A DNA stretch of 37,685 bases, from positions 1 through 37,685 of IMG/VR virus record IMGVR_UViG_3300048786_000060. The stretch is one strand, 5' to 3'. This DNA comes from a virus. Its lineage: Duplodnaviria; Caudoviricetes. This document shows positions 2,586 to 29,496 of the stretch, one piece after another; the stretch's first letter is position 1, and each line of letters starts with the position of its first letter. The translations under genes and the position numbers were made by a program. The notes beneath the pieces were generated by a model. That model saw only the letters and a program-made list of their open reading frames with translations, had not been told where the DNA came from and searched no databases.

Positions 2586-2908
2586 CAAGGCCGCAAATCG
2601 CAGTCGCGCGCGGCATCGAGCAACAGCTCGATGCGCTGCCGCTCGATGACCGCATTGAGGTGCTGGTCAGCCTGCTGGTCTGGCTGGGGCCAGCGATTCA
2701 GGACGCACGCGAGCGAGTCGAGTACGAGGAAACACGATCAATTGGTGACCTACTGCTGTTCGCGCAGGCATACGTGGGGGCGCGAAGATCAAACCTCAGC
2801 CCCATGGCCGCCGCTGATTGTGCAGCCAGCGAGGTATTTTTGCTCCGTTCGGTCGACGTGGGAAAACTTTCGCCCGCAGCCAGGATCTTGGTCGAGGGGA
2901 TGAGATAG
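2582..2908 (+). CDS. Hypothetical protein
   Basis: GTGA overlap with the upstream gene, 108 aa. Confidence 0.55.
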   Translation: MTRPQIAVARGIEQQLDALPLDDRIEVLVSLLVWLGPAIQDARERVEYEETRSIGDLLLFAQAYVGARRSNLSPMAAADCAASEVFLLRSVDVGKLSPAARILVEGMR

Positions 2909-2919
2909 GAAGGTTAGTC

Positions 2920-3774
2920 GTGATCCACTTTCAGCGTCTTGGCCTAGACAAGCCCGCATCCGACTACCGCCCGCCGCGTGCAAAGCGCATGGTGATGCCA
3001 TGGCATATGCACCCCAAGACGACGCGGTTCAGCCAGCTCACCGCGAGCGACCTCACGCCGCACATGCCCCCCATTGGCGACCAGAATCGCATTGGAGCCT
3101 GCAGTGCCTACGGCACTAAGGATGGCATCTGGACGTCAATGTCAGCCGCCCAGTGTCCGCCTCCCGGGTATTTTGCGGCCCTCCCGCTGTATCGGGCTGT
3201 CCGCTGCGTGGAGCGCAGCGGGCCGAGTGAGCCTCTCACCGATTGCGGCGCGGACCCAGATGACGTCCTGAAGGTCGCGCAAGTTTGGGGCATCCAGACC
3301 TCGCAGCGAGAGTGCGGACAACCTGGCCCGTCCCGAGAACTCAGCCAGTACGAGGACCAGCACGTCAACGATGAGCCGACGTTGGAGGAGTTTCAGCAGG
3401 ACGCGACGTTTCGGATCGTGGGCGGCTTCGATATCGTTTCGACTGGTGCCCAGCGGCTGCTCGACGTGAGCAACGCGCTTGCGAGTGGGTTCGCGGTGGG
3501 CATCTCGGTTGCCGCCAGTGACGACCGCTATCAGCAGTACGACGGCGGCATCCTGGCCGACCCGCCTGCGGGGGCAGAGTTGGATCACTACAACTACCTA
3601 GCGGGACTCGACCTGTCGACGGGCTCCCCCCTGTTCGTGGGCGTGAATTCGTGGGACGTGGGATACGGCCGCGCGTGGGGCTCAGCCCCAGGCGGATGCT
3701 GGCTTGGCGGCTCGGCCATCATCCACGCGTCTGATCGCCTCGTCGTCTATGCCGTCCAAGGAGCCACCACATGA
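2920..3774 (+). CDS. Papain-like (C1) cysteine peptidase
   Basis: DQNRIGACSAY (oxyanion Gln and catalytic Cys), DHYNY (His), VNSW (Asn-Ser-Trp); GTG start after AGGAAGG. Confidence 0.8.
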   Translation: MIHFQRLGLDKPASDYRPPRAKRMVMPWHMHPKTTRFSQLTASDLTPHMPPIGDQNRIGACSAYGTKDGIWTSMSAAQCPPPGYFAALPLYRAVRCVERSGPSEPLTDCGADPDDVLKVAQVWGIQTSQRECGQPGPSRELSQYEDQHVNDEPTLEEFQQDATFRIVGGFDIVSTGAQRLLDVSNALASGFAVGISVAASDDRYQQYDGGILADPPAGAELDHYNYLAGLDLSTGSPLFVGVNSWDVGYGRAWGSAPGGCWLGGSAIIHASDRLVVYAVQGATT

Positions 3775-11440: not shown

Positions 11441-11731
11441 ATGCCCACTCCGTATTACGACCACGGTGGGATCACGATCTATCACGGGGATTGCCGCGAG
11501 GTGCTGCCTACGGTCACGGACGCGAGCGTTGACCTCGTGCTCACCGATCCGCCCTACGGGCACAACAACAACAACGGTGACCTCGCCCATCGGTGGGAGG
11601 AAGCCCTTGGCCTGGTGAAACGTGGTGTGGCTACGGCCGGGGAGGCCAGGCCAATAGCCAACGATGGCCCAGAGGCGAACGAGATGGTCCGCTGGATGTT
11701 CGGACACGCAGCGAGGGTCATCAAGCCTGGC
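11441..11731 (+). pseudogene. Truncated beta-class N6A/N4C DNA methyltransferase (N-terminal half only)
   Basis: PYYDHGGITIYHGDCREVL...VDLVLTDPPYG...ARVIKPG, then similarity is lost; no FxGxG SAM-binding motif follows. Confidence 0.7.
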
Positions 11732-11894
11732 CGCTCGGCTAGGTGTGACTGCCACCGACGTACTGGCGATGGCCGAGACTCTCGGTCCGGCCCGCACGGT
11801 CCATCCTGCGGACCTGGCGTCCGAGCGTCGTCATCAGGATGCCCAGATGACTCGCAGCCAGCGCGCTGCCTTTGACCACGAGGAGGACTAGACC

Positions 11895-12131
11895 ATGACG
11901 ACCACGACCCTCAGCATCACGACCAAGGCCGGATACGTAGTGACCGACCCGCGCAGCCCGCTTCTGACCGCGGCCGCGCACGGCACGCTGATGGCGCGCC
12001 TCGGTCGCCGCCTGGACGGTGGCGCCAGCTACGAGGCCCGCCGCGCCTACGCACAGGAGCAGGATCGCGCAATCCAGTCCCGCCCCCGAAGACGGATGTC
12101 ACTCGCGGCAGCTATACGCGCCCTCTCGTAG
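11895..12131 (+). CDS. Hypothetical protein
   Basis: RBS GAGGAGG, 78 aa. Confidence 0.55.
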   Translation: MTTTTLSITTKAGYVVTDPRSPLLTAAAHGTLMARLGRRLDGGASYEARRAYAQEQDRAIQSRPRRRMSLAAAIRALS

Positions 12132-12230
12132 TCCCTCGCGGTCCTGGCGCCTCCACGAGACGCCCGGCACGAGGAGGACCACCACTCATCCCGAGCCGCA
12201 CGGATTGCGGCGACGAACGAAGGAGACTCC

Positions 12231-12701
12231 ATGGAAACGACATCATCGACTCTCAACCCGATCGAGAAGCTGACTCAGCTCTGCGCGCAGCGAACGGCTC
12301 GCACCGACCGCCTGCACAGCGCTGTCCGCACTCTGACCGACGCGCTGGAAGCGGCCGGAGCGCGCCCCGGCGAAATCAACGCGACGGTGGACGGTTGGAC
12401 ACTGAGCTACAACGATGTCCGCAGCAACGTTGGAGTGCGCGACTGCTGGAGTTTTTTGCGCACGGCCAGTGACTACGAGGGCTGCACCGACCTCGGCCTG
12501 GCGGTCAATCACGACGGCTATCTACACGGCGATTTCAACTGCCCGGTGACCGGCCCGACCCGCGCGCAGTTGATCGCATTCGGCCAGCGGGCCGCACAAT
12601 TCGTCGAGGCAATCACCGCGCAGCTCACCCACGACGTGGCGGCTCTGGACGCCGCAGTTGAGCAAGTCGATTCAACCACCGAGGAGGTGTCCCGTGTTTA
12701 G
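12231..12701 (+). CDS. Hypothetical protein
   Basis: RBS AAGGAG, 156 aa. Confidence 0.65.
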   Translation: METTSSTLNPIEKLTQLCAQRTARTDRLHSAVRTLTDALEAAGARPGEINATVDGWTLSYNDVRSNVGVRDCWSFLRTASDYEGCTDLGLAVNHDGYLHGDFNCPVTGPTRAQLIAFGQRAAQFVEAITAQLTHDVAALDAAVEQVDSTTEEVSRV

Positions 12702-13371
12702 CTCTTGGATCATCTCGACCATCCGCGCTCAAGAAACTGTCAACGTCACCAGCCCGTCCGCGGTGCTGGCAAAACTGGAGCGCGACGAGCTGGCCTATGT
12801 CCAGTACGTCAGCGGCTGCGACCGCGCAACAATGGGCCACGTGATCAAATGCACCGGGCTGTCGCTGGAAGATACGGTCAATGTAATCAGGCGGAACCGT
12901 GCGCTGCGACGACTCAAGCAGACCCACGGGAAGAACGGCGTGCCCTGCCTGACGGCAATCGTCGGCCTGGCACTGGCGCTACTGGTTGGCTGCGACGCCA
13001 CCGGCCTAACGGTCGAGCAGACGGCCGACACGCCCGCGGACGTCCCGCAGTCCATCGCCCCGCAGCCCGCGCCGGTGGTGCCACCGCCTGCCCCAGTCCC
13101 GCCGCCGGTGGCAGTACCAGCACCGCTACCAGTGCCCGTTCCGCCACAGGCCGCCCCGGTGCAGCCCCCACTCGCGCCCGGTGCCCCACTGCCAGCACCG
13201 ACTCCACCGCCGCCGGTGCCCCCGTGTTTCGATCGCGACCTCGGTGTCATCTCACCGTGCGCTGGTCGTCTCGACTGTACCGTCAGCTCGACCGTGACCG
13301 AGAGGACCATGTGCCAGGCGGGTGGCGTGGTCTACGTCCCAAGCTGTGAGACCTGCGCCGGGGTTTGGTGA
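12694..13371 (+). CDS. Membrane protein: HTH-like N-terminus, TM/lipobox-like segment, Pro-rich linker, Cys-rich C-terminus
   Basis: GTG after GAGGAGG; AIVGLALALLVGC; long PAP/PVP tract. Confidence 0.6.
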   Translation: MFSSWIISTIRAQETVNVTSPSAVLAKLERDELAYVQYVSGCDRATMGHVIKCTGLSLEDTVNVIRRNRALRRLKQTHGKNGVPCLTAIVGLALALLVGCDATGLTVEQTADTPADVPQSIAPQPAPVVPPPAPVPPPVAVPAPLPVPVPPQAAPVQPPLAPGAPLPAPTPPPPVPPCFDRDLGVISPCAGRLDCTVSSTVTERTMCQAGGVVYVPSCETCAGVW

Positions 13372-13431
13372 CACCGTGACCCTCGCCGCCGAGTCGATGC
13401 GCAGGGCGAGCGCCCAGCGGGAACTGTTCCG

Positions 13432-14109
13432 ATGAGCCATAAACGTGCTTGGACAATGCAGGATTCGCTTCCCGTCAAACGGCCGGGCGAGGCTGAGCGG
13501 CACTGCCGGTTCTGTGGCGGCGTAGTGGCGCGCCCGCGGCTGACGTTCTGCTCGCAAGCGTGTGTCGACCAGTGGACTCTGCGTACCAGGCCGCAGGATG
13601 CCCGCAAGGCCGTCGAGAAGCGTGACCATGGCGTCTGTGCGGTCTGCGGTGTCGACACTCAGCGGCTCGAACGGCTCGCGCGCCGGCTTGACCTGTTGGC
13701 GTTTGGGGCCTGGCGGGTACGTGACTACGGAATCGAATCTCGCCCAGACGTAGATGATTCCGAACTCGGCGTGCGGGCTTCGTCATGGCACCGCTACCCA
13801 AGCGCCGCCAAGGCAGCGGGTTGGCTCGATTGGCTGCTTCATGGGATACTATGGTGGTTCGGCGTGTGGGGCGGCAAGGGAGAACCAGGTGGCGACCTGT
13901 ACCCATCACGCCTCGGCTATTTCCGCCACCTCTGGGAGGCGGACCACATCGTGCCGGTCGTCGAAGGCGGGGGAGCGTCGAGAGACGTAGACCCGTTGGA
14001 AAATCTGCGCACGTTGTGCCGGCACTGTCACAAAGCCGAGACCCGCGCGCTGGCGTCCCGTCGGGCGAAAGCTCGGCGCCAGCAGCGGGAACTGTTCGAG
14101 CCGGGGTAA
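13432..14109 (+). CDS. HNH endonuclease with N-terminal Zn fingers
   Basis: CRFCG..FCSQAC, RDHGVCAVCG, WEADHIVPVVEGGG...LENLRTLCRHCH. Confidence 0.85.
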   Translation: MSHKRAWTMQDSLPVKRPGEAERHCRFCGGVVARPRLTFCSQACVDQWTLRTRPQDARKAVEKRDHGVCAVCGVDTQRLERLARRLDLLAFGAWRVRDYGIESRPDVDDSELGVRASSWHRYPSAAKAAGWLDWLLHGILWWFGVWGGKGEPGGDLYPSRLGYFRHLWEADHIVPVVEGGGASRDVDPLENLRTLCRHCHKAETRALASRRAKARRQQRELFEPG

Positions 14110-14112
14110 CAC

Positions 14113-14245
14113 ATGACCGCGTACTACAACGAGATCGACAAGTTCGCTGCCCAGTGGCTGCGTAACTTGATCGCCGCTGGCCACATCGCGCCCGGCGAAG
14201 TCGACACGAGGAGCATTGACGATGTCAAGCCCGATGATGTGCGGC
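14113..14245 (+). pseudogene. N-terminal stub of a phage C5 DNA cytosine methyltransferase
   Basis: MTAYYNEIDKFAAQWLRNLIAAGHIAPGEVDTRSIDDVKPDD is the characteristic start of a phage C5-MTase family; the expected FFAGIG motif is missing. Confidence 0.7.
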
Positions 14246-14310
14246 GTCTGCTGGCGCTTGAGTTTGGCATAGCCGAACCCGCGACCACCATATCCTTGGG
14301 AATTATATAC

Positions 14311-14339
14311 TTGACTCCCTTGGCAGTTTAGGGTAGATT
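14311..14339 (+). promoter_or_regulatory. Transposase promoter overlapping the left TIR
   Basis: TTGACT-N17-TAGATT. Confidence 0.65.
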
Positions 14340-14361
14340 TGCTGTAGAAAGTGAGGCCGTC

Positions 14362-15285
14362 GTGAGCCAATCTACCATCTCAACCTTCCAGCTTTTCCAG
14401 ATGTTTCCCGACGCGGAAACCGCTCGAATCTACATGGAAAAGCGCCTCTGGCCGTCTGGCCCCACGTGCCCCTGCTGTGGCCTTGGCGAGCGCATCACGA
14501 CGCGCAAGGATGGCTTCTACCGCTGCAACCAGTGCCAGGAAGACTTCACCGTCAGGACCGGCACCATCTTCGAGCGAAGCCACGTTCCGTTGCACAAGTG
14601 GCTCTACGCGATGTACCTGCTGGTCACGGCCCGCAAGGGCATCTCATCGATGCAGCTTGCCAAGGAAATCGGCATCACGCAGAAGTCCGCCTGGTTCGTC
14701 CTGCATCGTATCCGCGAAGCGTGCGGCCCGGACATGAAGAAGCTCCAAGGGATCGTCGAGGTTGACGAAACCTACGTGGGTGGCAAAGAGAAGAACAAGC
14801 ACGAGAGCAAGAAGCTCCACGAGGGCCGGGGTGCAGTAGGCAAGACCGCCGTCCTGGCCCTACGTGAACGTGGCAAAAGCGGTCGCACGGTTGGATTCCC
14901 CGTGGCCTCGGTGGACAGTGCAACGATTCACGCTGAAATCCGCGCGCACGTTGAAGCGGGATCCACGCTTCACACTGACGAAGCCGTGGTCTACAACGGG
15001 TTGGAGCCTGCCTTCAAACACGAGAGCATCAACCACAGCGCCCGCGAGTTTGCCCGTGGCAACGTAACCACCAACGGCATTGAAAGTTTCAACGCCCTGT
15101 TGAAGCGTGGCATCCTCGGCGTGTACCATCACGTGAGCCCGAAGCATCTTCCACGCTACGTCAACGAGTTCTCATTCCGACTGAACGAAGGCAATGTCCG
15201 CAATCACACCACACAACGGCTTGACAGTCTTATCCGTCGCTCGGCTGGCAAGCGTCTCACATTGGAGGCACTGACGAATGCCTGA
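14362..15285 (+). CDS. IS1595-family transposase (Zn ribbon + ISXO2-like DDE domain)
   Basis: CPCC...CNQC, FTVRTGTIFERSH, VEVDETYVGG, LHTDE, TNGIESF, YVNEFSFR. Confidence 0.95.
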   Translation: MSQSTISTFQLFQMFPDAETARIYMEKRLWPSGPTCPCCGLGERITTRKDGFYRCNQCQEDFTVRTGTIFERSHVPLHKWLYAMYLLVTARKGISSMQLAKEIGITQKSAWFVLHRIREACGPDMKKLQGIVEVDETYVGGKEKNKHESKKLHEGRGAVGKTAVLALRERGKSGRTVGFPVASVDSATIHAEIRAHVEAGSTLHTDEAVVYNGLEPAFKHESINHSAREFARGNVTTNGIESFNALLKRGILGVYHHVSPKHLPRYVNEFSFRLNEGNVRNHTTQRLDSLIRRSAGKRLTLEALTNA

Positions 15286-15439
15286 AACAACTACGGAAGT
15301 CCCCAAGGTGCTTGAGGCCATGGTGGACATGGTGTTGCGCTACAGACCGAAGCCGACAAGTGCTGCGCAGAAGAAGCGGAAGAGAAAGCGGAGGAAGGCG
15401 AAGGTCTTGCAATCGTGCGGCGGAATGGAGGGGGCATGA
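15278..15439 (+). CDS. Small basic protein downstream of the transposase (53 aa)
   Basis: RBS GGAGG; MPETTTEVPKVLEAMVDMVLRYRPKPTSAAQKKRKRKRRK...; ATGA overlap into the MTase. Confidence 0.6.
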   Translation: MPETTTEVPKVLEAMVDMVLRYRPKPTSAAQKKRKRKRRKAKVLQSCGGMEGA

Positions 15440-16371
15440 ATTCGGCATCAAATGTGGCTATGTCTGTGGAAACTCCCAATCGGGCTAGGCCGATCTTGAG
15501 ACGTGTCAACAACGCCCAATACTCCTTGTATTTAGGGGACTGTCTCACATGGATGGACGAAAGAGCCTCGAACTCCATCGAGGCTATAGTTACAGATCCA
15601 CCCTATGGCTTGCGGGAATACAATGAAACGGAAAAGCGCAAGCTGCGCCATGGGCGTGGTGGCGTGTGGCGCATTCCCCCCGCGTTTGATGGTTGTAACA
15701 GAAGCCCACTGCCAAGATTCACCACCTTGACCGACGAGGATAAGGACAATTTGTCGGCTTTCTTTGTGGACTTCGCTAGGCGAGCCCTTCGCATTTTGGT
15801 TCCAGGAGGGCACATTATGATGGCCTCGAATCCACTGCTTTCACATCTGGTTTTCGGGCCATTGATGACAGCGGGCTTCGAGAAGCGTGGGGAGATCATA
15901 CGACTGGTTCAAACCCTACGTGGTGGGGATAGGCCGAAGAACGCCCATGCTGAGTTCGACGATGTGACGGTGATGCCTCGTTCGGCGTGGGAACCGTGGG
16001 GGCTCTTCCGCAAACCCTGCGAGGGAAGAGTGCAAGACAACCTGCGCAAGTGGAAGACAGGAGGACTTCGCAGGCCATCTGCCGATCTTCCATTCAGTGA
16101 CGTTATTCGCTCATCACCGACACGTCCCGAGGAACGTCGCGTGTCTCCGCATCCGTCTCTAAAGCCCCAGGCATTCATGCGGCAGATCGTCCGTGCGGCT
16201 CTTCCACTTGGGCAGGGGACCATTCTTGATCCATTTCTTGGAGGCGGTTCAACGATAGCGGCGGCTGTGGCGGTCGGATACAACTCCATTGGAGTTGAGA
16301 GCGATGTTCAATACTTCGGAATTGCCGAAAGAGCCGTGGTTGCGTTGTCTCAACTGCAAATCGATGACTAA
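15436..16371 (+). CDS. Beta-class N6A/N4C DNA methyltransferase
   Basis: Motif IV TDPPY precedes HPSLKP and motif I DPFLGGGST. Confidence 0.9.
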   Translation: MNSASNVAMSVETPNRARPILRRVNNAQYSLYLGDCLTWMDERASNSIEAIVTDPPYGLREYNETEKRKLRHGRGGVWRIPPAFDGCNRSPLPRFTTLTDEDKDNLSAFFVDFARRALRILVPGGHIMMASNPLLSHLVFGPLMTAGFEKRGEIIRLVQTLRGGDRPKNAHAEFDDVTVMPRSAWEPWGLFRKPCEGRVQDNLRKWKTGGLRRPSADLPFSDVIRSSPTRPEERRVSPHPSLKPQAFMRQIVRAALPLGQGTILDPFLGGGSTIAAAVAVGYNSIGVESDVQYFGIAERAVVALSQLQIDD

Positions 16372-16976
16372 CGGTCCAAGTAGATCCAATTCTTTCTGAA
16401 GGAAAGCAGGCCGCTTTTGTCGAGAGTTGCGGTTCTTGTCCCGAGTTCGCCACGAGCATTTTTCCTAAAGTCACTCACGGACACTTTGCCTAAATACACT
16501 TCTTTGAATGACATCGGCAAACGAGACACCGCCGGTTCCGTAACGCCATCTATTGCGTAAACGAACACGCACATCCACTGGTCACGAGCACCATGCGTAT
16601 CCACAGCACCGCCAGACTTTCGAGTGGTCTTGATCTCGACGCCGTCAGCGCCAGACTGAATTCCGTTTTTTGGATACCTTCCCTGAACGACAAGATCCGG
16701 GTGCCCGTTGAAATAGGTATTCTGTACGAGGGATCGCGCGTGCTTGGCCATGCTGGCGGTCAGCATGTCGGACAACATCCCCGACATAATTGCAGGTCGC
16801 AACATGTCATCAAGCCTCTGCAATCCCTTCGTCGCCATGAGCACGTTCACATCATGGAAGAAATCGTAGACATCCTGCATGGCAACCTGGAAATCTTCCA
16901 AACGAAGCTCGAACGGCAGATCCGCCGAATCGTTGAAGGATTTCAAGTTGACCTTGCCTCGGTTTGTCGTGGCCAT
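16368..16976 (-). CDS. Putative PD-(D/E)xK restriction endonuclease
   Basis: GHPDLVV...GVEIKTT; convergent with and overlapping the MTase stop codon. Confidence 0.7.
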   Translation of the reverse strand: MATTNRGKVNLKSFNDSADLPFELRLEDFQVAMQDVYDFFHDVNVLMATKGLQRLDDMLRPAIMSGMLSDMLTASMAKHARSLVQNTYFNGHPDLVVQGRYPKNGIQSGADGVEIKTTRKSGGAVDTHGARDQWMCVFVYAIDGVTEPAVSRLPMSFKEVYLGKVSVSDFRKNARGELGTRTATLDKSGLLSFRKNWIYLDR

Positions 16977-17066
16977 CGCCGCAGAGTCGCGCGGGAATCG
17001 CGGCGTTGCAAGTTTTTGGGCTTGCGCGCTATCCTACATCACGAGGGAGTCAAGTATATAATTCCC

Positions 17067-17246
17067 AAAAATTGCACAGTTTGCGGGAAAGAGTTCACGC
17101 CAGCGCCCACGAAAAGAGCGAGGCAGAAAACATGCTCACGGGAATGCAGGTACTTGCAGTGTTCACTAACCGAGCGCCGGCCAGAAGGCCCACGCTCCAA
17201 GTACCGGAAGAATGCCTACCCGAGCGAAGTCTCTGTGCGCCGGTAG
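17067..17246 (+). pseudogene. Headless Zn-finger ORF fragment abutting the IS right end
   Basis: KNCTVCGKEF...KTCSREC with no start codon outside the TIR. Confidence 0.5.
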
Positions 17247-17279
17247 CGACGGAGTTTGTCAGAGCGGGATGGTGCGCGC

Positions 17280-17375
17280 TTGACGACCGGATCCCACCGG
17301 CGTAGAGTATCCGCATGCGAGAATGGCCATTTCGACGGATGAAGGCTGCGCGCCCTCCCTGTGCCCATTCTCGCA
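17280..17375 (+). promoter_or_regulatory. Sigma70-like promoter and 5'-leader inverted repeat
   Basis: TTGACG(17280-17285)-N17-TAGAGT(17303-17308); TGCGAGAATGG(17316-17326) pairs with CCATTCTCGCA(17365-17375). Confidence 0.65.
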
Positions 17376-17433
17376 AAGCGTGTTCGCGGGGTAGCAGGCG
17401 CGTGGCCTTGATTCGTTGAGATAGGAGAGCAGC

Positions 17434-18588
17434 TTGAAGTTCCATCCAGCCGCTGAAGTTTTTCCCCTATTGGTAGGCAAGGAATTTGCCGCCCTCGTGT
17501 CCGACATCAAGGAGCACGGGCAGATCGATCCGATCCTCGTCCTGGACGGGATGATCCTCGACGGACGCAACCGCTGGCGGGCGTGCCGGGAGGCCAGCGT
17601 TGAGCCCAAGATGAAGGATTGGCCCGGCGGAAATCCTTGGGACTTCGTTTGGAGTAAGAATGCCGAGCGACGTCACCTCGAACCGGGCCAAAAAGCGGCA
17701 ATCCGCTACAAGGTCGAGAAAGGGTCCGATGCTTGGCTAGCTAAGCGGAAAGCCGCGGAGGACAAGGCGAACCGGGCCAGAAGCGAGAGCCAGAAGGGAA
17801 AGCCAAGGCCAACGCAGAAAGATCGGGAGACGGTGACGGATGGGAGGGAACGTGTCCCCTCACGAGACGGGACACGTTCCCATGGTACTCACCAGTCCCA
17901 CGCCGCATCCGCCCTTGCGGCATCGTCGCACACCAGCCGGGCCACATCGGAGCGGGTAATTGCGCTTGAGAAGAAGAACCCCGAGCTTTTTGAGAAGGTG
18001 TGCAGCGGCGAGATCAAGCTTGGAGGTGCATGCCGAGAGGCGAAACGAAACGAGTCATCCGAAAGACTCAAGGGTTTCGCGCTTCCCACTTCGGCAGACG
18101 GGCCATTCGGCGTCATCGTTGCCGATCCTCCTTGGACCTACGACAAGCGAGCGGAGGACGATACGCACCGTGGGGCCTGCCCATATCCCTGCATGAGCCT
18201 TGACGCCATCAAGGCAATCGAGATTCCCGCAGTGAACGACGCGATCCTGTGGCTTTGGACGACGAACGCACATCTTGAGCACGCTTTTGGGATCTGCCGC
18301 GCTTGGGGTTTTGACCCGAAGACGGTGTTGACGTGGGTTAAACAAAAAATGGGTCTCGGCGACTGGCTGCGGGGGAAATCGGAACACTGTTTGCTCGCCG
18401 TGAAGGGGCGGCCCACCGTCGTGCTCACCAATCAGACGACGGTGCTTGAAGCGGCGGCGGCAGAACATTCGGCGAAGCCTGACGAGTTCTACTCAATGGT
18501 CGAGAAGCTGTGCCCAGACACTCGCAGGCTGGAGCTGTTCTCGCGCCGCAAGCGTGACGGCTGGTATTGCTCCGGGTGCGATCTGTGA
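17434..18588 (+). CDS. ParB/Spo0J-like domain fused to an MT-A70 (IME4-like) adenine methyltransferase
   Basis: DIKEHGQIDPI...ILDGRNRWRAC; VADPPW, LWLWTTN, WGF, HSAKPDEFY, LELFSR. Confidence 0.9.
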   Translation: MKFHPAAEVFPLLVGKEFAALVSDIKEHGQIDPILVLDGMILDGRNRWRACREASVEPKMKDWPGGNPWDFVWSKNAERRHLEPGQKAAIRYKVEKGSDAWLAKRKAAEDKANRARSESQKGKPRPTQKDRETVTDGRERVPSRDGTRSHGTHQSHAASALAASSHTSRATSERVIALEKKNPELFEKVCSGEIKLGGACREAKRNESSERLKGFALPTSADGPFGVIVADPPWTYDKRAEDDTHRGACPYPCMSLDAIKAIEIPAVNDAILWLWTTNAHLEHAFGICRAWGFDPKTVLTWVKQKMGLGDWLRGKSEHCLLAVKGRPTVVLTNQTTVLEAAAAEHSAKPDEFYSMVEKLCPDTRRLELFSRRKRDGWYCSGCDL

Positions 18589-20341: not shown

Positions 20342-21819
20342 CGGACCCTACCCGCATTCCCCCGCACGACCTGGATGCAGAGGCCAGTGTGATTGGCTGC
20401 GTCCTGCTGGGCGCCGAGAAGGCGCTGGCGTTGGTGTCGGACTTGCGGGCCGACGACTTTTTCGCGCCTGAGCACCGGGAGGTATGGGCGGCCGCGGTGG
20501 CTCTTTTAGGGCGGGCCGTGCCGGTGGATGTTGTGAGCCTGGGCGGGGAACTCAAGGCCCGTGGCGTGGCGGCTAGGTTCGATGGCGGGTGGGGGACATG
20601 GTCGGCCAAGACCGCGAGCAGCGTCTCGGCCTGGCACAACGTCCAGCACCACGCGCTCATTGTGCGAGAGCGGGCGACACTGCGCCGGCTGCTGGCCCTT
20701 GCGACCGAGGTAGCGTGCCGTTGCTACACCGGCGAGTCCGTGGCGGAGGTGTTGGGGCAGGCCCGCGAGGGCGTGGCGGCCCTGGAGGTTGACGGGCAGG
20801 AAGGCGGGCCGGTCAAGATCGGCGACGCATTGAGCGAAGCTATCGAGGTCGTGCAGTCTCGCGCCAAGGGCCAGGTGTCGGAGCACATGGTGCTGACCGG
20901 GATCGAAACGCTCGACTTCGAGATCGGCGGGATGGCGCCTGAGGAGGTCGTGGTCGTGGCCGGCCGGCCGGGTCACGGAAAGACAGCCTTCGCTGATTGC
21001 GTGGCGGTCAACTGCAGTCTGGCCGGCGTGCCCTGTTTGTTCTTTTCGTTGGAGATGAGCCTACAGCAACTGGTTGAGCGCGTTCTTTCGATGCGCAGCC
21101 AGATACCGGCGAGCCACCTACGGTCAGGGCGTGGCGAGGGATACAGGCCGCTGGACAAGGAAGCATTCGGGAAGCTGACAGACGCCTCGAATGAACTCTA
21201 CGGCGTGCCGCTATGGATTGAGCCGCGCTCACTGCCGCTTGGGCGAATTGTGGGCGAGTCTCGCCGATGGCACGCCCGCCACGTGCGCGGGAAGGGTAAG
21301 CAGCTTGCCCTCATCGCCATCGACTACCTGCAACTGGTCGAGGTCGAGACACAGCGACGCGGCGGCAATCGCGAGGAGGCGGTGGCGCAGATTTCCAAGA
21401 CGTGCAAGCGGCTCGCGAAAGACCTTGGGCTGCCGGTGTTGGCGATGTCGCAGCTCAACCGCGAGATCGAAAAGAGCAACCGTGAGCCCCAGATGTCGGA
21501 CATTCGCGAATCTGGGGCAATCGAACAGGACGCCAGTATCATCCTCTGCCCGTGGCGCGGCGAGATTGCGACGGACCCCGAACGCAAGAACGAGGACTGT
21601 GACGCCGACATCATCATCCTGAAAAACCGCGGCGGGCGAACCGGGAAGGCCCCGGTTCGATGGCACGCGAAGACGATGGAGTTTAGGCACGACTGGAGCC
21701 GTAGCAAGACCGGGCGGCCAGCGGACTTCGGCGGCGAGCGGTCGCTGATTGACGACTACCAACCACGCTCCAATGGTCACAACGACCGCCCCGCGCCGAA
21801 CTACCAGGACCGAGAATGA
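20338..21819 (+). CDS. dnaB: Replicative DNA helicase
   Basis: PPHDLDAEASVIG, Walker A AGRPGHGKT, FSLEM, IDYLQL, SQLNR, DIRESGAIEQDA, KNRGG. Confidence 0.95.
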   Translation: MTDPTRIPPHDLDAEASVIGCVLLGAEKALALVSDLRADDFFAPEHREVWAAAVALLGRAVPVDVVSLGGELKARGVAARFDGGWGTWSAKTASSVSAWHNVQHHALIVRERATLRRLLALATEVACRCYTGESVAEVLGQAREGVAALEVDGQEGGPVKIGDALSEAIEVVQSRAKGQVSEHMVLTGIETLDFEIGGMAPEEVVVVAGRPGHGKTAFADCVAVNCSLAGVPCLFFSLEMSLQQLVERVLSMRSQIPASHLRSGRGEGYRPLDKEAFGKLTDASNELYGVPLWIEPRSLPLGRIVGESRRWHARHVRGKGKQLALIAIDYLQLVEVETQRRGGNREEAVAQISKTCKRLAKDLGLPVLAMSQLNREIEKSNREPQMSDIRESGAIEQDASIILCPWRGEIATDPERKNEDCDADIIILKNRGGRTGKAPVRWHAKTMEFRHDWSRSKTGRPADFGGERSLIDDYQPRSNGHNDRPAPNYQDRE

Positions 21820-22079
21820 AGTTCTCCGACCCGCAAACTTGTCCGTTCTGGCGCACGCATTGCCGCCATTGTATAGGGGAGATTGGCACACTTGAAGTGA
21901 TGTTTCTCGACGGGAACTGTGAGCGATGTTCGGAAAAGCTAATTGCTGAGGCAAGAGAATGCATCACTAACCCAGACGGCCCTGCGCCCGTATACCGCGG
22001 CGATTGGTGGGGAGCTGTCCATCTGTATCGGAGAGAAATCCCCCACGCCTCCCCGCCGTCCTGGCATGAGCGAGACTGA
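21816..22079 (+). CDS. Hypothetical protein
   Basis: ATGA overlap, Cys-containing. Confidence 0.45.
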   Translation: MKFSDPQTCPFWRTHCRHCIGEIGTLEVMFLDGNCERCSEKLIAEARECITNPDGPAPVYRGDWWGAVHLYRREIPHASPPSWHERD

Positions 22080-22099
22080 CAGCGAAAGGACGAACCACG

Positions 22100-22537
22100 A
22101 TGGCTCGCATCGCCCTGATAGCCCGTCTCGGCCGCCGGCCAGAGATGCGCGAGATCACTAGGCACCTTGAGTCCATGGGGCACGTCATGTGCTCACGGTG
22201 GGTGCGGCTCGATACCGAGGACGACGAAATGGATCAGTACGGGAAGGCGAACTCAGCGCTACAGAATGCCGACGATCTGGAGAGTTCCCACCTGGCCATT
22301 GCGTTCACCGAGCGGCGGCCATTCACCCCGGGGACCGCGCGCGGTGGCCGACACGCTGACCTTGGGTACGCTCTCTCGGTTTGCTCGCGGGTTATCGTTG
22401 TAGGGCCTCGGGAGAACATCGCGTACTTTTCGCCAAAGATCGAACTGGTCGACACGGTCGCGCAGTTACTGGAGCTGCTGCGAAATCCCAGCCGAAACAG
22501 CAGAGAAAGAAAAGTCTTGCGCAAGCGTATTGAGTGA
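22100..22537 (+). CDS. Nucleoside 2-deoxyribosyltransferase-like protein
   Basis: SRW...DDLESSHLAIAFTE...GGRHADLGYAL...VIVVGPREN. Confidence 0.6.
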   Translation: MARIALIARLGRRPEMREITRHLESMGHVMCSRWVRLDTEDDEMDQYGKANSALQNADDLESSHLAIAFTERRPFTPGTARGGRHADLGYALSVCSRVIVVGPRENIAYFSPKIELVDTVAQLLELLRNPSRNSRERKVLRKRIE

Positions 22538-22551
22538 TATAGGGTGATGTC

Positions 22552-22695
22552 ATGGAACCAAAGGGCGTGCTTCTAGTCAGGCTGCCACTAGAGCTGATTG
22601 CAACGATTCGCCACGAGGCTGGCATCAAGGGGCAGACACTCAGCGAGTACGTCAAGCGCCAGCTCGAACTGGCACGAAAGGAAAAACGAAAATGA
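22552..22695 (+). CDS. Arc/RHH-like small DNA-binding protein (47 aa)
   Basis: MEPKGVLLVRLPLELIATIRHEAGIKGQTLSEYVKRQL; preceded by TTGCGC-N17-TAGGGT. Confidence 0.65.
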   Translation: MEPKGVLLVRLPLELIATIRHEAGIKGQTLSEYVKRQLELARKEKRK

Positions 22696-23006
22696 TAGGA
22701 CAACTGCGACATGGGGATCTGAACTTTTTCGACGAAGCTACGGCCACCGAGGCGGGCATATCGCTGCCGAACAAGGGCGCCAAATATGAGGCCGTGTGTG
22801 ACGTGGTGCTGGCTGGAAGCCACGGCGGAGCACACATACTGCACGGCCCGGCCGAAATTCTCAGGATTGATGATCGCGTGCAGTGGGTGCGCATCCCACA
22901 CGACACCCGCGTGTCACACGCAGATCGTCACCTGGATGGGGCACAACCCGCTGGCCTATACGCAATAGTGCGGATGCGGGACGCTGACGGATTGGTGGAG
23001 GATTGA
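22692..23006 (+). CDS. Small His-containing protein of the type found next to DUF6745-like genes
   Basis: RHGD...LAGSHGGAH...HADRH...GLYAIVRMRD. Confidence 0.6.
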   Translation: MIGQLRHGDLNFFDEATATEAGISLPNKGAKYEAVCDVVLAGSHGGAHILHGPAEILRIDDRVQWVRIPHDTRVSHADRHLDGAQPAGLYAIVRMRDADGLVED

Positions 23007-23008
23007 CC

Positions 23009-23932
23009 ATGGCTATCATGTCGGCTGAGCAGGCAATAGATTATGTGTCGGGCCTGATGCTCACGCACCGAGGACCGAACGCGGACGGAGTGGCGCCGTC
23101 TGACGAAGCGATTGAGGCGCTGCGAGCGGAAATACTCGAAGCATTTCCCCAGAAGTGCCCGGTCGTCACGGTCGTGGCAAGGTCGCAACTAGATGCTGTG
23201 CGTATTGCGCAGGAGCATGGGTGTCCAGCGGAAGAGTTGTATTCACGGGGCGCCGCTGGAGAGATGCAGTTGCAGTACGATTCGTTTGGGGCAGCGACTT
23301 CAAGCTACTCGATAGGAGGTACGCTGGTCGCGCATCTGTGTGGTGAATATGACCTCAAGGAGATGGCAGGACCAATTGAACACGCAGTGCGGACGGTGCA
23401 TGCGGAAATAGCCGGATCGATTTTTCTGGAAGGCGATGGAGAGCCCTCGGTGTTAATCATCGTTCCATTGCCAACGCGCGAACGCCGAGACGAGTTGAAG
23501 CGATTGCACTGCGCCGATGGCCCCGCAATTTCCTACATCGATGAAGATCGGTGGTATTGGCACGGGATGGCGGTGCCGCGCGACGTGATCATGCGAGATC
23601 AATGGAGCACCAGTGAGATCGACGAACTCCCCAACACCGAAATACGCAGAGCGCTCGCCGAGCGACTGGGCGGGGCGAAGACATTGGATATGATGGGCGC
23701 TACGACCATCGACGAGCGCGACGGATACAAGCTGGTCGGCGTCGCACGGGTAGCAAAACGCTATCTCGTGATGACGTCTCCAGTGCTCCGGGATGGGACT
23801 ACCCCGATCTATATCGAGTCAGTGTCTCGTAATTGTGAGACAGCATTGGGGGCGAGAAAATGGCGCGTGACTGAACTGTCTGAGAGTGAGTGTGACGAAA
23901 ACCCAGCTCTTAAATATGTCATGGAGAGCTAG
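23009..23932 (+). CDS. DUF6745-like protein
   Basis: RLHCADGPAISY...YWHGMAVP...NTEIRRALAERLG; RBS GGAGG. Confidence 0.65.
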   Translation: MAIMSAEQAIDYVSGLMLTHRGPNADGVAPSDEAIEALRAEILEAFPQKCPVVTVVARSQLDAVRIAQEHGCPAEELYSRGAAGEMQLQYDSFGAATSSYSIGGTLVAHLCGEYDLKEMAGPIEHAVRTVHAEIAGSIFLEGDGEPSVLIIVPLPTRERRDELKRLHCADGPAISYIDEDRWYWHGMAVPRDVIMRDQWSTSEIDELPNTEIRRALAERLGGAKTLDMMGATTIDERDGYKLVGVARVAKRYLVMTSPVLRDGTTPIYIESVSRNCETALGARKWRVTELSESECDENPALKYVMES

Positions 23933-23933
23933 T

Positions 23934-24077
23934 GTGACTCGCGTAGTACCGAAGCACCAGCGGGCGTCGTGGTCGTCGTGGGCGTCGTGGGCGTCGCGGT
24001 CGTCGTGGGTGCGGTCGTGGTCGTCGTGGGCGTCGTGGTCGTCGCGGTGGTCGCGGTCGTCGTGGAGGCTGCCATGA
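23934..24077 (+). CDS. Trp/Ser-rich peptide 1 (47 aa)
   Basis: GTG after GGAGAG; MTRVVPKHQRASWSSWASW...SSWRLP*. Confidence 0.6.
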   Translation: MTRVVPKHQRASWSSWASWASRSSWVRSWSSWASWSSRWSRSSWRLP

Positions 24078-24238
24078 CTCGCGTAGTGCCGAAGCACCAG
24101 CGGGCGTCGTGGTCGTCGTGGGAGTCGCGGGCGTCGTGGGCGGCGTGGGCGTCGCGGTCGTCGTGGGCGGCGTGGGCGTGGCGGGCGGCGTGGTTGTGGG
24201 CGTCGTCGTGGTCGGCGCGGGCGTGGAGGCTGCCATGA
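24074..24238 (+). CDS. Trp/Ser/Ala-rich peptide 2 (54 aa)
   Basis: GGAGG-N5-ATG overlapping the previous TGA; MTRVVPKHQR...AWRLP*. Confidence 0.65.
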   Translation: MTRVVPKHQRASWSSWESRASWAAWASRSSWAAWAWRAAWLWASSWSARAWRLP

Positions 24239-24450
24239 CTCGCGCAGTGCCGAAGCACCAGCGGTCGTCGTGGGAGTCGCGGGCGTCGTGGGCGTCGCGG
24301 GCGTCGTGGGCGGCGTGGGCGTCGCGGGCGTCGTGGGCGGCGTGGGCGTCGTGGGCGGCGTGGTGGTCGCGGTCGTCGTGGGAGTCGTCGTCGTGGGCGT
24401 CGTGGTCGTGGCGGGAGTCGTCGTCGGCGCGGGCGTGGAGGCTGCCATGA
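24235..24450 (+). CDS. Trp/Ser/Ala-rich peptide 3 (71 aa)
   Basis: Same RBS/ATGA junction; MTRAVPKHQR...AWRLP*. Confidence 0.65.
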   Translation: MTRAVPKHQRSSWESRASWASRASWAAWASRASWAAWASWAAWWSRSSWESSSWASWSWRESSSARAWRLP

Positions 24451-24656
24451 CTCGCGCAGTGCCGAAGCACCAGCGGTCGTCGTGGGCGTCATGGGCGTTA
24501 CGGGCGTCGTGGGCGTCGTGGGCGGCGTGGTGGTCGCGGTCGTCGTGGGAGTCGTCGTCGTGGGCGTCGTGGTCGCGGTGGTCGCGGTCGTTGTGGGAGT
24601 CGTCGTCGTGGGCGTCGTGGTCGCGGTGGTCGCGGTCGTTGTGGAGGCTGCCATGA
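24447..24656 (+). CDS. Trp/Ser-rich peptide 4 (69 aa)
   Basis: Same junction; MTRAVPKHQR...LWRLP*. Confidence 0.65.
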   Translation: MTRAVPKHQRSSWASWALRASWASWAAWWSRSSWESSSWASWSRWSRSLWESSSWASWSRWSRSLWRLP

Positions 24657-24838
24657 CTCGCGCAGTGCCGAAGCACCAGCGGTCGTCGTGGGCGTCATGG
24701 GCGTTACGGGCGTCGTGGGCGTCGTGGTCGTGGTGGTCGTGGTCGTCGTGGGCGTCGCGGTGGTCGCGGTCGTCGTGGGAGTCGTCGTCGTGGGCGTCGT
24801 GGTCGCGGTGGTCGCGGTCGTCGTGGAGGCTGCCATGA
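24653..24838 (+). CDS. Trp/Ser-rich peptide 5 (61 aa)
   Basis: Same junction; MTRAVPKHQR...SWRLP*. Confidence 0.65.
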   Translation: MTRAVPKHQRSSWASWALRASWASWSWWSWSSWASRWSRSSWESSSWASWSRWSRSSWRLP

Positions 24839-24933
24839 CTCGCGAACGGTTTCACTTCGAGATCGAGGGCCTGCTCTGGCGCGCGCTGTTGGTAGGGCTG
24901 ATCTTCTCGTGCGCGTTCGTTACGAAATGCTGA
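24835..24933 (+). CDS. 32-aa hydrophobic peptide closing the array
   Basis: Same RBS/ATGA and MTR start, then ERFHFEIEGLLWRALLVGLIFSCAFVTKC. Confidence 0.5.
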   Translation: MTRERFHFEIEGLLWRALLVGLIFSCAFVTKC

Positions 24934-24934
24934 C

Positions 24935-25603
24935 ATGAACACCTTGGCCCTTCTCCTTGCCCTCGGCTTCCCCGCGCTGGGCGCGTCCCACGCGCAGGCG
25001 GAGCCGGTCAAGCCGTCCCTGGTGTGCCAGGTCCAGCACGCAATCCGCTGGCGTGACCCCGCATGGACCGAGCAGCAATGCCAGGCCCGCGCGCGCGAGT
25101 TCATGGCTAGCGGTCAGCGCTGGGGATTCGCGCCGGTGCAGCTCCTGGCCATGGCCATCGACGAGAGCGACTTGCGGCCAGAGGCCATGCGCGAGGACCG
25201 CGGTGCCCTGGACGTGGGGCTGATGGCGGTGCGCTGCCATCTCAGGCGGACGATTATTCCAATGGCAACCAGCGACGGCAAACAACCAAATGACGCGCGA
25301 AATATTCCAAAGAATATTCCATCGCCCACCTGCACGAACAAGCCGGTGCGCGGCCTCACCCCGGCTCAACTCATGCGGCCCTCGGTCAACATCGACATGG
25401 GGGCGCGCATCCTGGCGACGCTCCACCGTGGCAGCCTAGCCGGCTACAACGGCGGACCGAACGCCCGCGAGCATGGATATCCCGAGAAGGTGGCGGCCAT
25501 CATGGCGGCGCTCGGCGGCGTGGAAGTGCGAGTCTCGGGAAAGCGGATGCGAAAGCTGGTCAGGCAGATTGTCATAGCTACAACAAAGAAAGGCGAGAAA
25601 TGA
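24935..25603 (+). CDS. Lytic transglycosylase (SLT) with signal peptide
   Basis: LLAMAIDES (catalytic Glu), DVGLM, NIDMGARIL, LAGYNGG. Confidence 0.8.
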   Translation: MNTLALLLALGFPALGASHAQAEPVKPSLVCQVQHAIRWRDPAWTEQQCQARAREFMASGQRWGFAPVQLLAMAIDESDLRPEAMREDRGALDVGLMAVRCHLRRTIIPMATSDGKQPNDARNIPKNIPSPTCTNKPVRGLTPAQLMRPSVNIDMGARILATLHRGSLAGYNGGPNAREHGYPEKVAAIMAALGGVEVRVSGKRMRKLVRQIVIATTKKGEK

Positions 25604-25869
25604 GCATGTTCAAGTTTGAGAACGGGGCGACGGTAAAGGACTCTGTCACTGGGATTCGAGGTATGATAGTGGGGAGAACTGATTGGAGGTTCGGCTGCAA
25701 GAGATACATCGTGCAGCCGATTGAACTGCAAGAAGGCAAGCCGTTAGACCCGGTCAATTTCGATGAACAGCAACTGGTATTGATCAAGCAGTCTTCCGAT
25801 TCAAACCCAGTTGAAGCTGGGGGTGATAGGCCGTCGCCGATGCGTAGCGCATCTCCCACTAGACGGTGA
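25600..25869 (+). CDS. Phage hypothetical protein
   Basis: VKDSVTGIRGMIVGRT...GC.RY.VQP...FDEQQL. Confidence 0.65.
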   Translation: MSMFKFENGATVKDSVTGIRGMIVGRTDWRFGCKRYIVQPIELQEGKPLDPVNFDEQQLVLIKQSSDSNPVEAGGDRPSPMRSASPTRR

Positions 25870-26000
25870 CCATCCATGTCGCGGACGCAGAGGCAGCGCT
25901 GGCAGATTGTCGCGGCGGTGGCCGCAGAAGGGAAGCCATGACGAAAGCACAACGGGCGGACGCGCTGCTATGGGCGGCGAAGATAAGTCTGGAGGAATCC

Positions 26001-26213
26001 ATGACCGATAGATACTATGCTCTGACGGTTGCGCTTGAGCACGACGTGCGTGCTGACGATGCCCAGAGAATTATCGAAGCCATCAAGCGGATACGCGGGG
26101 TGCTGAGTGTCGAAGGCAACGTGTCCGACACGACCAACTGGGTGGCCGAGGAGCGTGTTCGGAGGGAACTTGGGGAGAAGCTATTCGCCGTGATCACAGG
26201 GGGGACGAAGTGA
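26001..26213 (+). CDS. Phage hypothetical protein
   Basis: RBS GGAGG; MTDRYYALTVALEHDVRADDA...IRGVLSV. Confidence 0.65.
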   Translation: MTDRYYALTVALEHDVRADDAQRIIEAIKRIRGVLSVEGNVSDTTNWVAEERVRRELGEKLFAVITGGTK

Positions 26214-27187
26214 ACGGTTGGCAATACGCACGGAAATGCAACGAAAAGGCGGCCGTGCTGCGACTTGCTCAGTCGCAGGCGGAAGAGGCAATGCGGCTGA
26301 TGAGCAAACACATGATCGAGCATAGCCCACTCGGCGCAACGGCTGAAGCGCACCTAGCAATAGAGGACGCCGTGCGGGCCTTGAAGCCGGGTGCTCATAA
26401 TGATTTGCCATTGGCAATCGCGCTGCAATTCTATCCAGGCGATCAATCCAAGGCGCTACGGCTCGCTCGCTTTCTGGCAGACCTAGAACCGGAGTATCGA
26501 GACGACGTGCTGCTGATTTTTGCTGAGAGATTCGATGTCGAGCAGAACTCGGGCCTATCGGCTGCTATACAGCATTGCGCGCGGAAGTTTCCCGTAACCC
26601 AGCTTAGAAGCCAGCGGCCTGGCGCCGGCCACCTCGAAGGATCGTGGGGGCTATTCGCGGGAATCGCGGATCTATGCTATCGCAACTACTGCCACATTTG
26701 GCCCTGGTCCAATGTGTTTTTCGCGGAGGCGGACGGAATACCGCTGCGATGGGATTGGATCGACGTGTTGAAGCGGGCGCATGCTGAGAATCTCGCACGC
26801 GACAAGCGCGTGACTGGGTCTCTAATGGCCGCATATGGTGGTCACGTCGGAGGGTCTCATGTTCATCATTGCTCGTTCTGGGGAGATCATCAAAGCTTGC
26901 AACACTGCCGCAGGGGCTGTGCTTGGGATTTGTTCCACGCTCAGGTGCTGAAAGCAGAACTAGGTTCAGCCCCCGCCATAGCTAATCTCTATGGGGCTCA
27001 GAGTATTAGCCCGAGCGTGTTTCGGACGCTGGGGAACGAATACGGGCATGCCTGGCTGGCAAACGCAAAAGACGAAAGCGCCTGGCAATGTGCCCAGGCG
27101 CTTCTGCCTAACACGGATGCCCGCAGAACACGAAGGCGTCAAGGTTCAGAAAAAAGCGAAGGAGTACACGATGAAAATAGTGACTGA
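26210..27187 (+). CDS. Putative glycosyltransferase-like protein
   Basis: FFAEADGIPLRWDWI resembles a DxD-type motif; adjacent to a second GT-like gene. Confidence 0.45.
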   Translation: MNGWQYARKCNEKAAVLRLAQSQAEEAMRLMSKHMIEHSPLGATAEAHLAIEDAVRALKPGAHNDLPLAIALQFYPGDQSKALRLARFLADLEPEYRDDVLLIFAERFDVEQNSGLSAAIQHCARKFPVTQLRSQRPGAGHLEGSWGLFAGIADLCYRNYCHIWPWSNVFFAEADGIPLRWDWIDVLKRAHAENLARDKRVTGSLMAAYGGHVGGSHVHHCSFWGDHQSLQHCRRGCAWDLFHAQVLKAELGSAPAIANLYGAQSISPSVFRTLGNEYGHAWLANAKDESAWQCAQALLPNTDARRTRRRQGSEKSEGVHDENSD

Positions 27188-28756: not shown

Positions 28757-29077
28757 ATGAACCGAACCCGCGACATTCGAGAAATCATCGAGTCAGGCGT
28801 GGAAGCACTGGCCGAGACGATGGACATGCTGCGCGCTGTTCCAGCTGACGACCGGCTGGACCAAGTCTATCTCAAGGGTCTCACGGCCTGCACCCGCGCT
28901 GCCGTTGAAATCGCGAAGGACCAGCGCGACTGCGCCGACTTCCTGGCGCGCCAGAAGCTTGACGAGGCGTCACTGAACAAGTTGCTTCGTGAACATCTGG
29001 CGAAGATGCCGCCCGAGCAGCTGGCGGAATTGCTGCCGCGGTTTGGCGATGCGACGCCACCGGAGAAGCACGCGTGA
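28757..29077 (+). CDS. Helical protein, candidate terminase small subunit
   Basis: Position upstream of TerL; helical 106 aa; no diagnostic motif. Confidence 0.4.
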   Translation: MNRTRDIREIIESGVEALAETMDMLRAVPADDRLDQVYLKGLTACTRAAVEIAKDQRDCADFLARQKLDEASLNKLLREHLAKMPPEQLAELLPRFGDATPPEKHA

Positions 29078-29496
29078 GTGAGTTCGCGATTCGCCCGGCC
29101 GGCCCTGACGACATGGCGTTTGTGATCGACGCTTGGCTTGAGGGCTATTGGATGGATGGCCCGTTCTCGCTCGTGATGCCAAAGTCCATGTGGTGGCCGC
29201 GCTGGCATCGCGTGATCGAGAATATCCTGACCGACGAACGCACCCGCACGGTCATCGCGTGCCTGGAAGAGCGGCCGGACCAGCTGATGGGCTTTGCGTG
29301 CAGTAGGCCCCCGGACATCCTGCACTGGGTGTACGTCAAGCAGGCGTTTCGTGGGAATGGGATAGCGATAGAGCTTCTAGACGTGGAGCTTCCCGCGAGG
29401 TGCAGCCACTGGACGGTAAAGGCGAATCGCTTCAACTGGCATCAGTCGGAATGTTGGAGCTACGACCCTGCCATCATCAAGGAATACCAACCATGA
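29074..29496 (+). CDS. GNAT-family acetyltransferase
   Basis: IRPAGPDD...LHWVYVKQAFRGNGIA (acetyl-CoA-binding motif A). Confidence 0.8.
   Translation: MSEFAIRPAGPDDMAFVIDAWLEGYWMDGPFSLVMPKSMWWPRWHRVIENILTDERTRTVIACLEERPDQLMGFACSRPPDILHWVYVKQAFRGNGIAIELLDVELPARCSHWTVKANRFNWHQSECWSYDPAIIKEYQP

Follow-up and report, generated by a model that had tools for sequence, protein, structure and literature searches.

The five short, coupled genes at positions 23,934 to 24,838 of the phage DNA analyzed here (one stretch of 37,685 nucleotides, hereafter the window) are part of a recurring phage module that we did not find in print. Across related loci, a periodic block inside DUF6745 proteins and free repeat mini-genes are mutually exclusive. 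On balance, we favor the reading that the units of the array are a detached and multiplied DUF6745 block, likely translated in a coupled manner and likely acting as exchangeable partner segments for the DUF6745 protein and its small His-rich partner. The link to the upstream DUF6745 gene and to this partner was absent from the original prediction. The features of the region are as follows.

22692-23006, + strand: small all-beta His-motif protein, 104 aa, model pLDDT 82
23009-23932, + strand: DUF6745 protein, 307 aa, without an internal periodic block (PF20530, 43.7 bits against a cut-off of 27)
23934-24077, + strand: mini-gene 1, 47 aa, 9 Trp, GTG start one base past the DUF6745 stop
24074-24238, + strand: mini-gene 2, 54 aa, 11 Trp
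24235-24450, + strand: mini-gene 3, 71 aa, 14 Trp
24447-24656, + strand: mini-gene 4, 69 aa, 15 Trp, with another in-frame core in a near-identical record
24653-24838, + strand: mini-gene 5, 61 aa, 14 Trp, identical in record L001
24062-24103, + strand: 42-bp junction, first full copy (peptide tail, GGAGG, ATGA overlap, 10-residue leader)
24223-24264, 24435-24476 and 24641-24682, + strand: the other full copies of the junction
24835-24933, + strand: 32-codon hydrophobic ORF coupled to unit 5, its first 10 nt those of a unit start

The array consists of five stop-free ORFs of 47-71 codons chained by ATGA overlaps, and the peptide lengths, the overlaps and the GGAGG 5 nt before the ATG are all as the original prediction had them. 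Its constant 42-bp junction also stands, but of the six junctions claimed only four are full copies, which differ in one variable column and each have GGAGG ending 5 nt before the ATG. The other two are halves: the leader alone before unit 1, and the tail with the first 10 nt before the 32-codon ORF. At all four unit-to-unit junctions, and again at the junction into the 32-codon ORF, the upstream gene contains a Shine-Dalgarno motif and overlaps the next by ATGA. Because the ribosome-binding site is written into the peptide tail, the tail is constant, and the constant leader may be only the duplicated start region. Read-through of TGA to yield a polyprotein was considered and rejected, because units 1 and 2 each have an in-frame TAG at their start. 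The 32-codon ORF, for which a PHROG search gave no match, is the right boundary and probably lies outside the module.

Within the cores, 192 of 237 residues fit an x-[S/A]-[W/R] triad, compared with 122 +/- 8 in shuffled sequences, and none of 2000 shuffles reached 192; the periodicity is not due to chance. The commonest distance from one core Trp to the next is three residues (24 of 58). The array holds 63 TGG codons; Trp makes up about 20% of the peptides, and their net charge is +7 to +8, with modest hydrophobic moments of 0.21-0.35. Blocks are common to neighboring units, which supports the proposal that a coupled set of variable peptides grew by duplication at the junction. Kept frame, which had been put forward as evidence of selection, does not serve as such: the cores consist of units of 3 and 9 nt, slippage by multiples of three changes length by whole codons, and frame is expected to persist without selection. 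Only 10.9% of single changes in the window cores would create a stop. Codons are almost exclusively TCG, TGG, GCG, CGG and GAG, and with 233 of 237 third positions being G, the window cores have almost no synonymous change and give no usable sign of selection.

The window is phage DNA, with terminase, portal, head protein and DnaB among its gene matches. At least half of the sampled window words occurred in 12 of 20 listed runs, all of them peat metagenomes; the single RNA run among the 20 held a fraction of 0.07 of the words. In eight runs, short contigs agree in every letter with the array over the cores of units 1 and 2, over several of the junctions and over stretches of units 3-5. No contig spans the whole array, so the number and order of units rest on the record itself. 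Over unique cores, contig depth frequently came to about half of the flanking depth, a pattern in which GC bias and mixed alleles are indistinguishable. In a second record, which over 3.3 kb is 99.2% identical, unit 5 is the same and the unit before it is different but also in frame; the differing unit may be an allele or a mis-join. Searching viral records with the junction pattern returned two matches, both the window phage or nearly so. The five peptides were absent from the protein collection searched, and word search, Atlas features and PHROGs yielded no direct relatives of them. A search with the core pattern gave 14 loci: one was the window phage, two were blocks in DUF6745 genes and one was a block in another gene; the remaining 10 appear to be opposite-strand linkers or unrelated repeats.

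Elsewhere in the window, an SLT-domain gene with a hydrophobic N-terminus (24935-25603) lies between replication and packaging genes and not in a tail or lysis module. The stretch 11441-18588 carries DNA methyltransferase genes (at 11441, 15415 and 17434), HNH genes and an IS1595-family transposase (14362-15285). A papain-family peptidase is encoded at 2818-3774 and a GNAT acetyltransferase at 29074-29496, shortly before the terminase gene. No tRNA genes were found in the window.

DUF6745 (PF20530; phrog_31813) and the partner family (phrog_27831; PF31129 in the Atlas) are catalogued without a function in the libraries searched. The window's own partner protein matched no Pfam or PHROG family; its relatives match phrog_27831, and one of them is labeled PF31129 in the Atlas. 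Three His are invariant and one Asp nearly so among 24 aligned relatives of the partner, and DUF6745 has invariant His as well. The partner gene was the sole recurring neighbor of DUF6745 loci: in 29 of the 31 loci that have 1-kb flanks the two genes lay within 1.5 kb of each other, and in one Atlas cluster the two are fused. The only long-flank loci of the first comparison set without a detected partner, L024 and L112, represent one phage, with a very long Ala-rich block. Neither protein matched an enzyme family. In fold searches DUF6745 had no clear PDB match and BFVD returned only DUF6745 itself, and the partner likewise had no clear match; such absence does not show a new fold. Relatives of the partner did not appear in one scan of bacterial genomes, which thus gave no hint of the host. 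A complex prediction of DUF6745 with unit 3, made without control runs, scored 0.01 and counts neither way.

In two relatives of the window's DUF6745, L011 and L022, the x-[S/A]-[W/R] repeat lies inside the gene, also in codons ending in G. L011 (HMM E-value 2e-21) fits the triad at 57 of 72 residues with a codon cosine of 0.91; L022, the 5' part of a cut gene behind the same small partner, fits at 66 of 69 residues with a codon cosine of 0.56. More broadly, 19 of the 93 homologues aligned have a periodic block, its words three or four residues long, at a fixed site; in 17 of these 19 the block ends at positions equivalent to window residues 97-108. The window protein is without such a block: its periodicity score is 0.25, compared with 0.5 or more in block-bearing loci, and its model (pLDDT 89) is confident across the block site at about residues 60-97 (pLDDT 83-94). 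Low-complexity blocks were present in only 33 of 152 DUF6745 homologues, and 14 of 43 block-less clusters had no repeat mini-gene at all, so that DUF6745 seems not to need a block. Periodic Ala-rich blocks also occur in phage proteins other than DUF6745 (L014, L026, L110 and L115), with Ala/Trp blocks like those of the window in L014 and L110.

We compared blocks and arrays across two sets of loci. The first set comprised 96 fetched loci plus the window, forming 87 clusters at 90% identity, from which 24 clusters were dropped (17 with the block site unseen or unclear, 7 with short flanks); labels were assigned by hand, for the window included. Free repeat mini-genes occurred in 11 of 18 block-less clusters versus none of 45 block-bearing clusters, of which only 17 have 1 kb on both sides (Fisher p = 5e-8, a value inflated by kinship, which the counts in both sets ignore). 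The second set, fetched via the small partner gene and scored by a fixed rule, held 92 loci, 81 of them with DUF6745, in 42 new clusters; five incomplete clusters were dropped, and five with short flanks, all five block-less with tracts. Here mini-genes accompanied 18 of 25 block-less and none of seven block-bearing clusters (p = 0.001, likewise inflated), and the tracts are leader-core-tail chains whose units, up to about a dozen in number, overlap stop to start (ATGA). Because mini-genes stand beside block-less DUF6745 genes and never beside block-bearing ones, the units are most likely a detached, multiplied copy of the block. Repeat mini-genes that start no more than 5 nt from the DUF6745 stop, as in the window, are also found in L103, L104, L107 and L131. 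Since the window's mini-genes directly follow a repeat-less DUF6745, a single protein core is likely to bear several surfaces that can be exchanged.

One clade contains most of the free loci. On a quick tree of 84 of the 97 rows, in which the window is a long branch, the free state requires seven changes, at least four of them forced by well-supported branches. The window falls within a supported group of 11 rows, outside the clade with the majority of arrays, and its repeat word is unlike those of its nearest classed relatives. Several loci show further arrangements. The mini-gene behind DUF6745 in L131 (4189-4275) opens with the same seven bases as window unit 1, which may be chance. L032 has six mini-genes (79-1117) that are coupled, share a constant basic leader and consist of Ser/Arg/Gly/Trp two-residue repeats; they lie 1.7 kb upstream of a DUF6745 pair that also has a four-residue mini-gene behind it. 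In L097 (3495-4719) the His partner and a short DUF6745 stand in one run with an 89-aa gene and a coupled Ser/Arg/Trp mini-gene, and in L080 (1649-2301) a 124-aa gene is followed by a Gly/Tyr/Asp/Ser repeat ORF. Three block-less loci with no repeat mini-gene, L066 (1122-1648), L105 (3950-4488) and L098 (3153-3696), instead carry by DUF6745 chains of non-repetitive ORFs of like size (54-70 aa), some with shared tails or leaders; these chains are possibly aged arrays.

Relatives' arrays offer better evidence of selection than does the keeping of frame, in the form of stop avoidance. Among Gln codons of four-residue arrays, 31 first-position changes included none to a stop, in units that had been chosen as open. 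Given this choice, a separate test was anchored on leaders: across six loci, 38 of 39 leader-started ORFs encode 54-114 aa, the one exception being a short unit that retains an intact leader and tail. The median length of 66 hand-picked units is 63 aa, comparable to the 47-71 aa of the window units. Against selection, results at Val sites are mixed, synonymous to non-synonymous changes being 54:19, a strong ratio, in the first set and 33:48, near neutral, in the second; one unit of L053 is frameshifted, and some units of L100 read through their stop.

The alternative that we take most seriously, at a low but real probability, is that the array is a left-over coding minisatellite, a block shed from DUF6745 and then amplified through slippage and unequal crossing-over, whose peptides may be made and yet be invisible to selection. 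The near-total uniformity of the codons, the kept frame that follows from units of 3n, the block-less clusters that do without repeat mini-genes and the near-neutral Val ratio of the second set would all fit. Such an origin accounts poorly for a ribosome-binding site in every junction, for repeated origin on the tree, and for the stop avoidance and narrow unit length seen in relatives, also in the strongly diverged arrays L182 and L201. We consider it unlikely that the peptides function by themselves, whether as decoys or as cationic, membrane-active peptides rich in Trp, with the DUF6745 neighborhood reflecting origin only. The charge and Trp content of the window units point that way, and indolicidin-type peptides have a similar cationic, Trp-rich make-up; yet most equivalent arrays are rich in Gln, Val and Asp and non-cationic, close linkage with the DUF6745 pair persists across separate lineages, and the hydrophobic moments are modest. 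Less probable still is a role as RiPP-like leader-plus-core substrates of a metal enzyme, with the His-rich partner or DUF6745 modifying or cleaving the peptides. The invariant His residues of both proteins, the near-invariant Asp of the partner and the pairing of a constant leader with a variable core are consistent with it, against which neither protein matched an enzyme family, leaders are wholly different between phages, and the same repeats occur without a leader inside DUF6745.

The original prediction also raised the idea of a chain that acts as a sensor or sink of Trp-tRNA and controls whether the SLT gene downstream is translated; this now appears very improbable. The many TGG codons and the unbroken run of coupled ORFs into the 32-codon ORF, with the SLT gene one base on, suit such a sensor. 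However, there are no terminator-like sites in 21700-26300, one junction folds no better than its shuffles (z = -0.52), no downstream gene is conserved in relatives, which have other genes there, and most equivalent arrays are far less Trp-rich. In a Trp attenuator, a terminator hairpin follows a Trp-rich leader, and the absence of terminator-like sites in that interval led us to reject this candidate in that form; attenuation of translation may yet apply. We find it hardest of all to credit a role for the region at the DNA or RNA level, or its reading in a different frame or from the minus strand, where a 391-codon ORF spans 23929-25104. Both remaining plus frames of the cores are indeed stop-free, the minus strand has long ORFs, and third-position variation is seen in the Arg/Gly frame; but a GGAGG-preceded start and a stop for each unit exist in the Ser/Trp frame only, that frame is the coding one where the same DNA lies inside DUF6745, other frames carry stops in relatives, and an Rfam search gave no match. 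We chose the Ser/Trp frame for the first two of these reasons.

Among known systems, a CRISPR array has unrelated spacers of near-constant length and cas genes nearby; the spacers of the window array vary in length, are of low complexity and are interrelated, and no Cas family was found among the 54 ORFs scanned, so this candidate was rejected. The cultured Microcystis phage Ma-LMM01 has the same two-gene pair (gp174/gp175) near replication genes, with the same fixed variable site. Its gp174 carries a non-repetitive insert at that site with no array after it, whereas in the window the repeat lies outside the gene as five coupled mini-genes. The four-residue-repeat arrays (L057, L152, L165, L201 and others) share with the window a block-less DUF6745, the partner and leader-core-tail units of about 60 aa; the window differs in its three-residue x-[S/A]-[W/R] word, its cationic peptides, its separate DUF6745 lineage and its peat origin. 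Judging from the parts of the sources available to us, the published system that comes closest is the tandem LRR locus of Flavobacterium psychrophilum, whose hypervariable genes change by microhomology recombination and slippage (PMC10392669). As in the window, these are tandem paralogues with constant ends and variable repeat number; as far as the accessible text goes, they encode bacterial surface proteins with secretion signals and 22-residue LRRs, include many broken fragments and have no design in which the repeat is detached from a core (PMC10392669), whereas window units are 47-71 aa with 3-residue repeats. Termination-reinitiation coupling, in which ATGA overlaps occur with an intragenic Shine-Dalgarno motif (PMC6728339, PMC10666635), would account, as described in the available parts of these papers, for the window junction only and not for the repeat library. 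PeSL cassettes of T4-type phages, with a promoter and a stem-loop, are repeated junctions that let small genes shuffle; in the accessible descriptions they lie between unrelated genes, whereas the window junction is coding and its units are paralogues (PMC2839356, PMC4122927). PeSL features are absent from the window junction: we found no plus-strand sigma-70-like site and no terminator-like site, and the junction's folding score is the one given above. Literature searches, with most subscription journals outside their scope, returned no publication on DUF6745, PF31129, phrog_27831, phrog_5189 or IPR046633, and none on such a mini-gene design or on Ma-LMM01 gp174. The original statement that no characterized system has this design thus agrees with the searches made, which met none.

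Our preferred reading, of units as detached DUF6745 blocks, can be set out as a sequence of steps. Very probably, the block would have left DUF6745, or an equivalent would have arisen behind it, as one mini-gene, later copied through unequal crossing-over at the junction and altered by 3n slippage. Ribosomes would, with similarly high probability, reinitiate at each ATGA and make the five peptides in similar amounts. Each peptide may then dock at the block site as an amphipathic segment, giving several surfaces on one core, a step that we rate as somewhat probable. Those surfaces could conceivably interact with a variable target of the host, such as a defense or replication protein, during the early or middle phase, though we regard this as rather doubtful. 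What we infer about origin and translation is well supported, and what we infer about docking and the host target is weaker.

In its widest form, which we put forward tentatively, the proposal is that DUF6745 and its partner form a phage platform of undescribed fold whose specificity segment is either integral to it or provided in trans by a library of coupled mini-genes that diversifies itself. Such libraries would have arisen several times with different words, the three-residue Trp library of the peat phage being one origin, and would provide swappable recognition peptides against host targets. The other repeat period, found in a separate lineage, suggests recurrence of the design and not of the word. 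The proposal predicts that the variable segment is part of a protein in some phages and several separate peptides in others; all three proteins are small and lend themselves to co-expression, which allows a direct test of the idea. The proposal also links tiny phage ORFs of a kind overlooked by gene callers to one conserved two-gene module. If true, phages would diversify one protein surface through a mini-gene library that changes by slippage and crossing-over, with no reverse transcriptase or recombinase in view.
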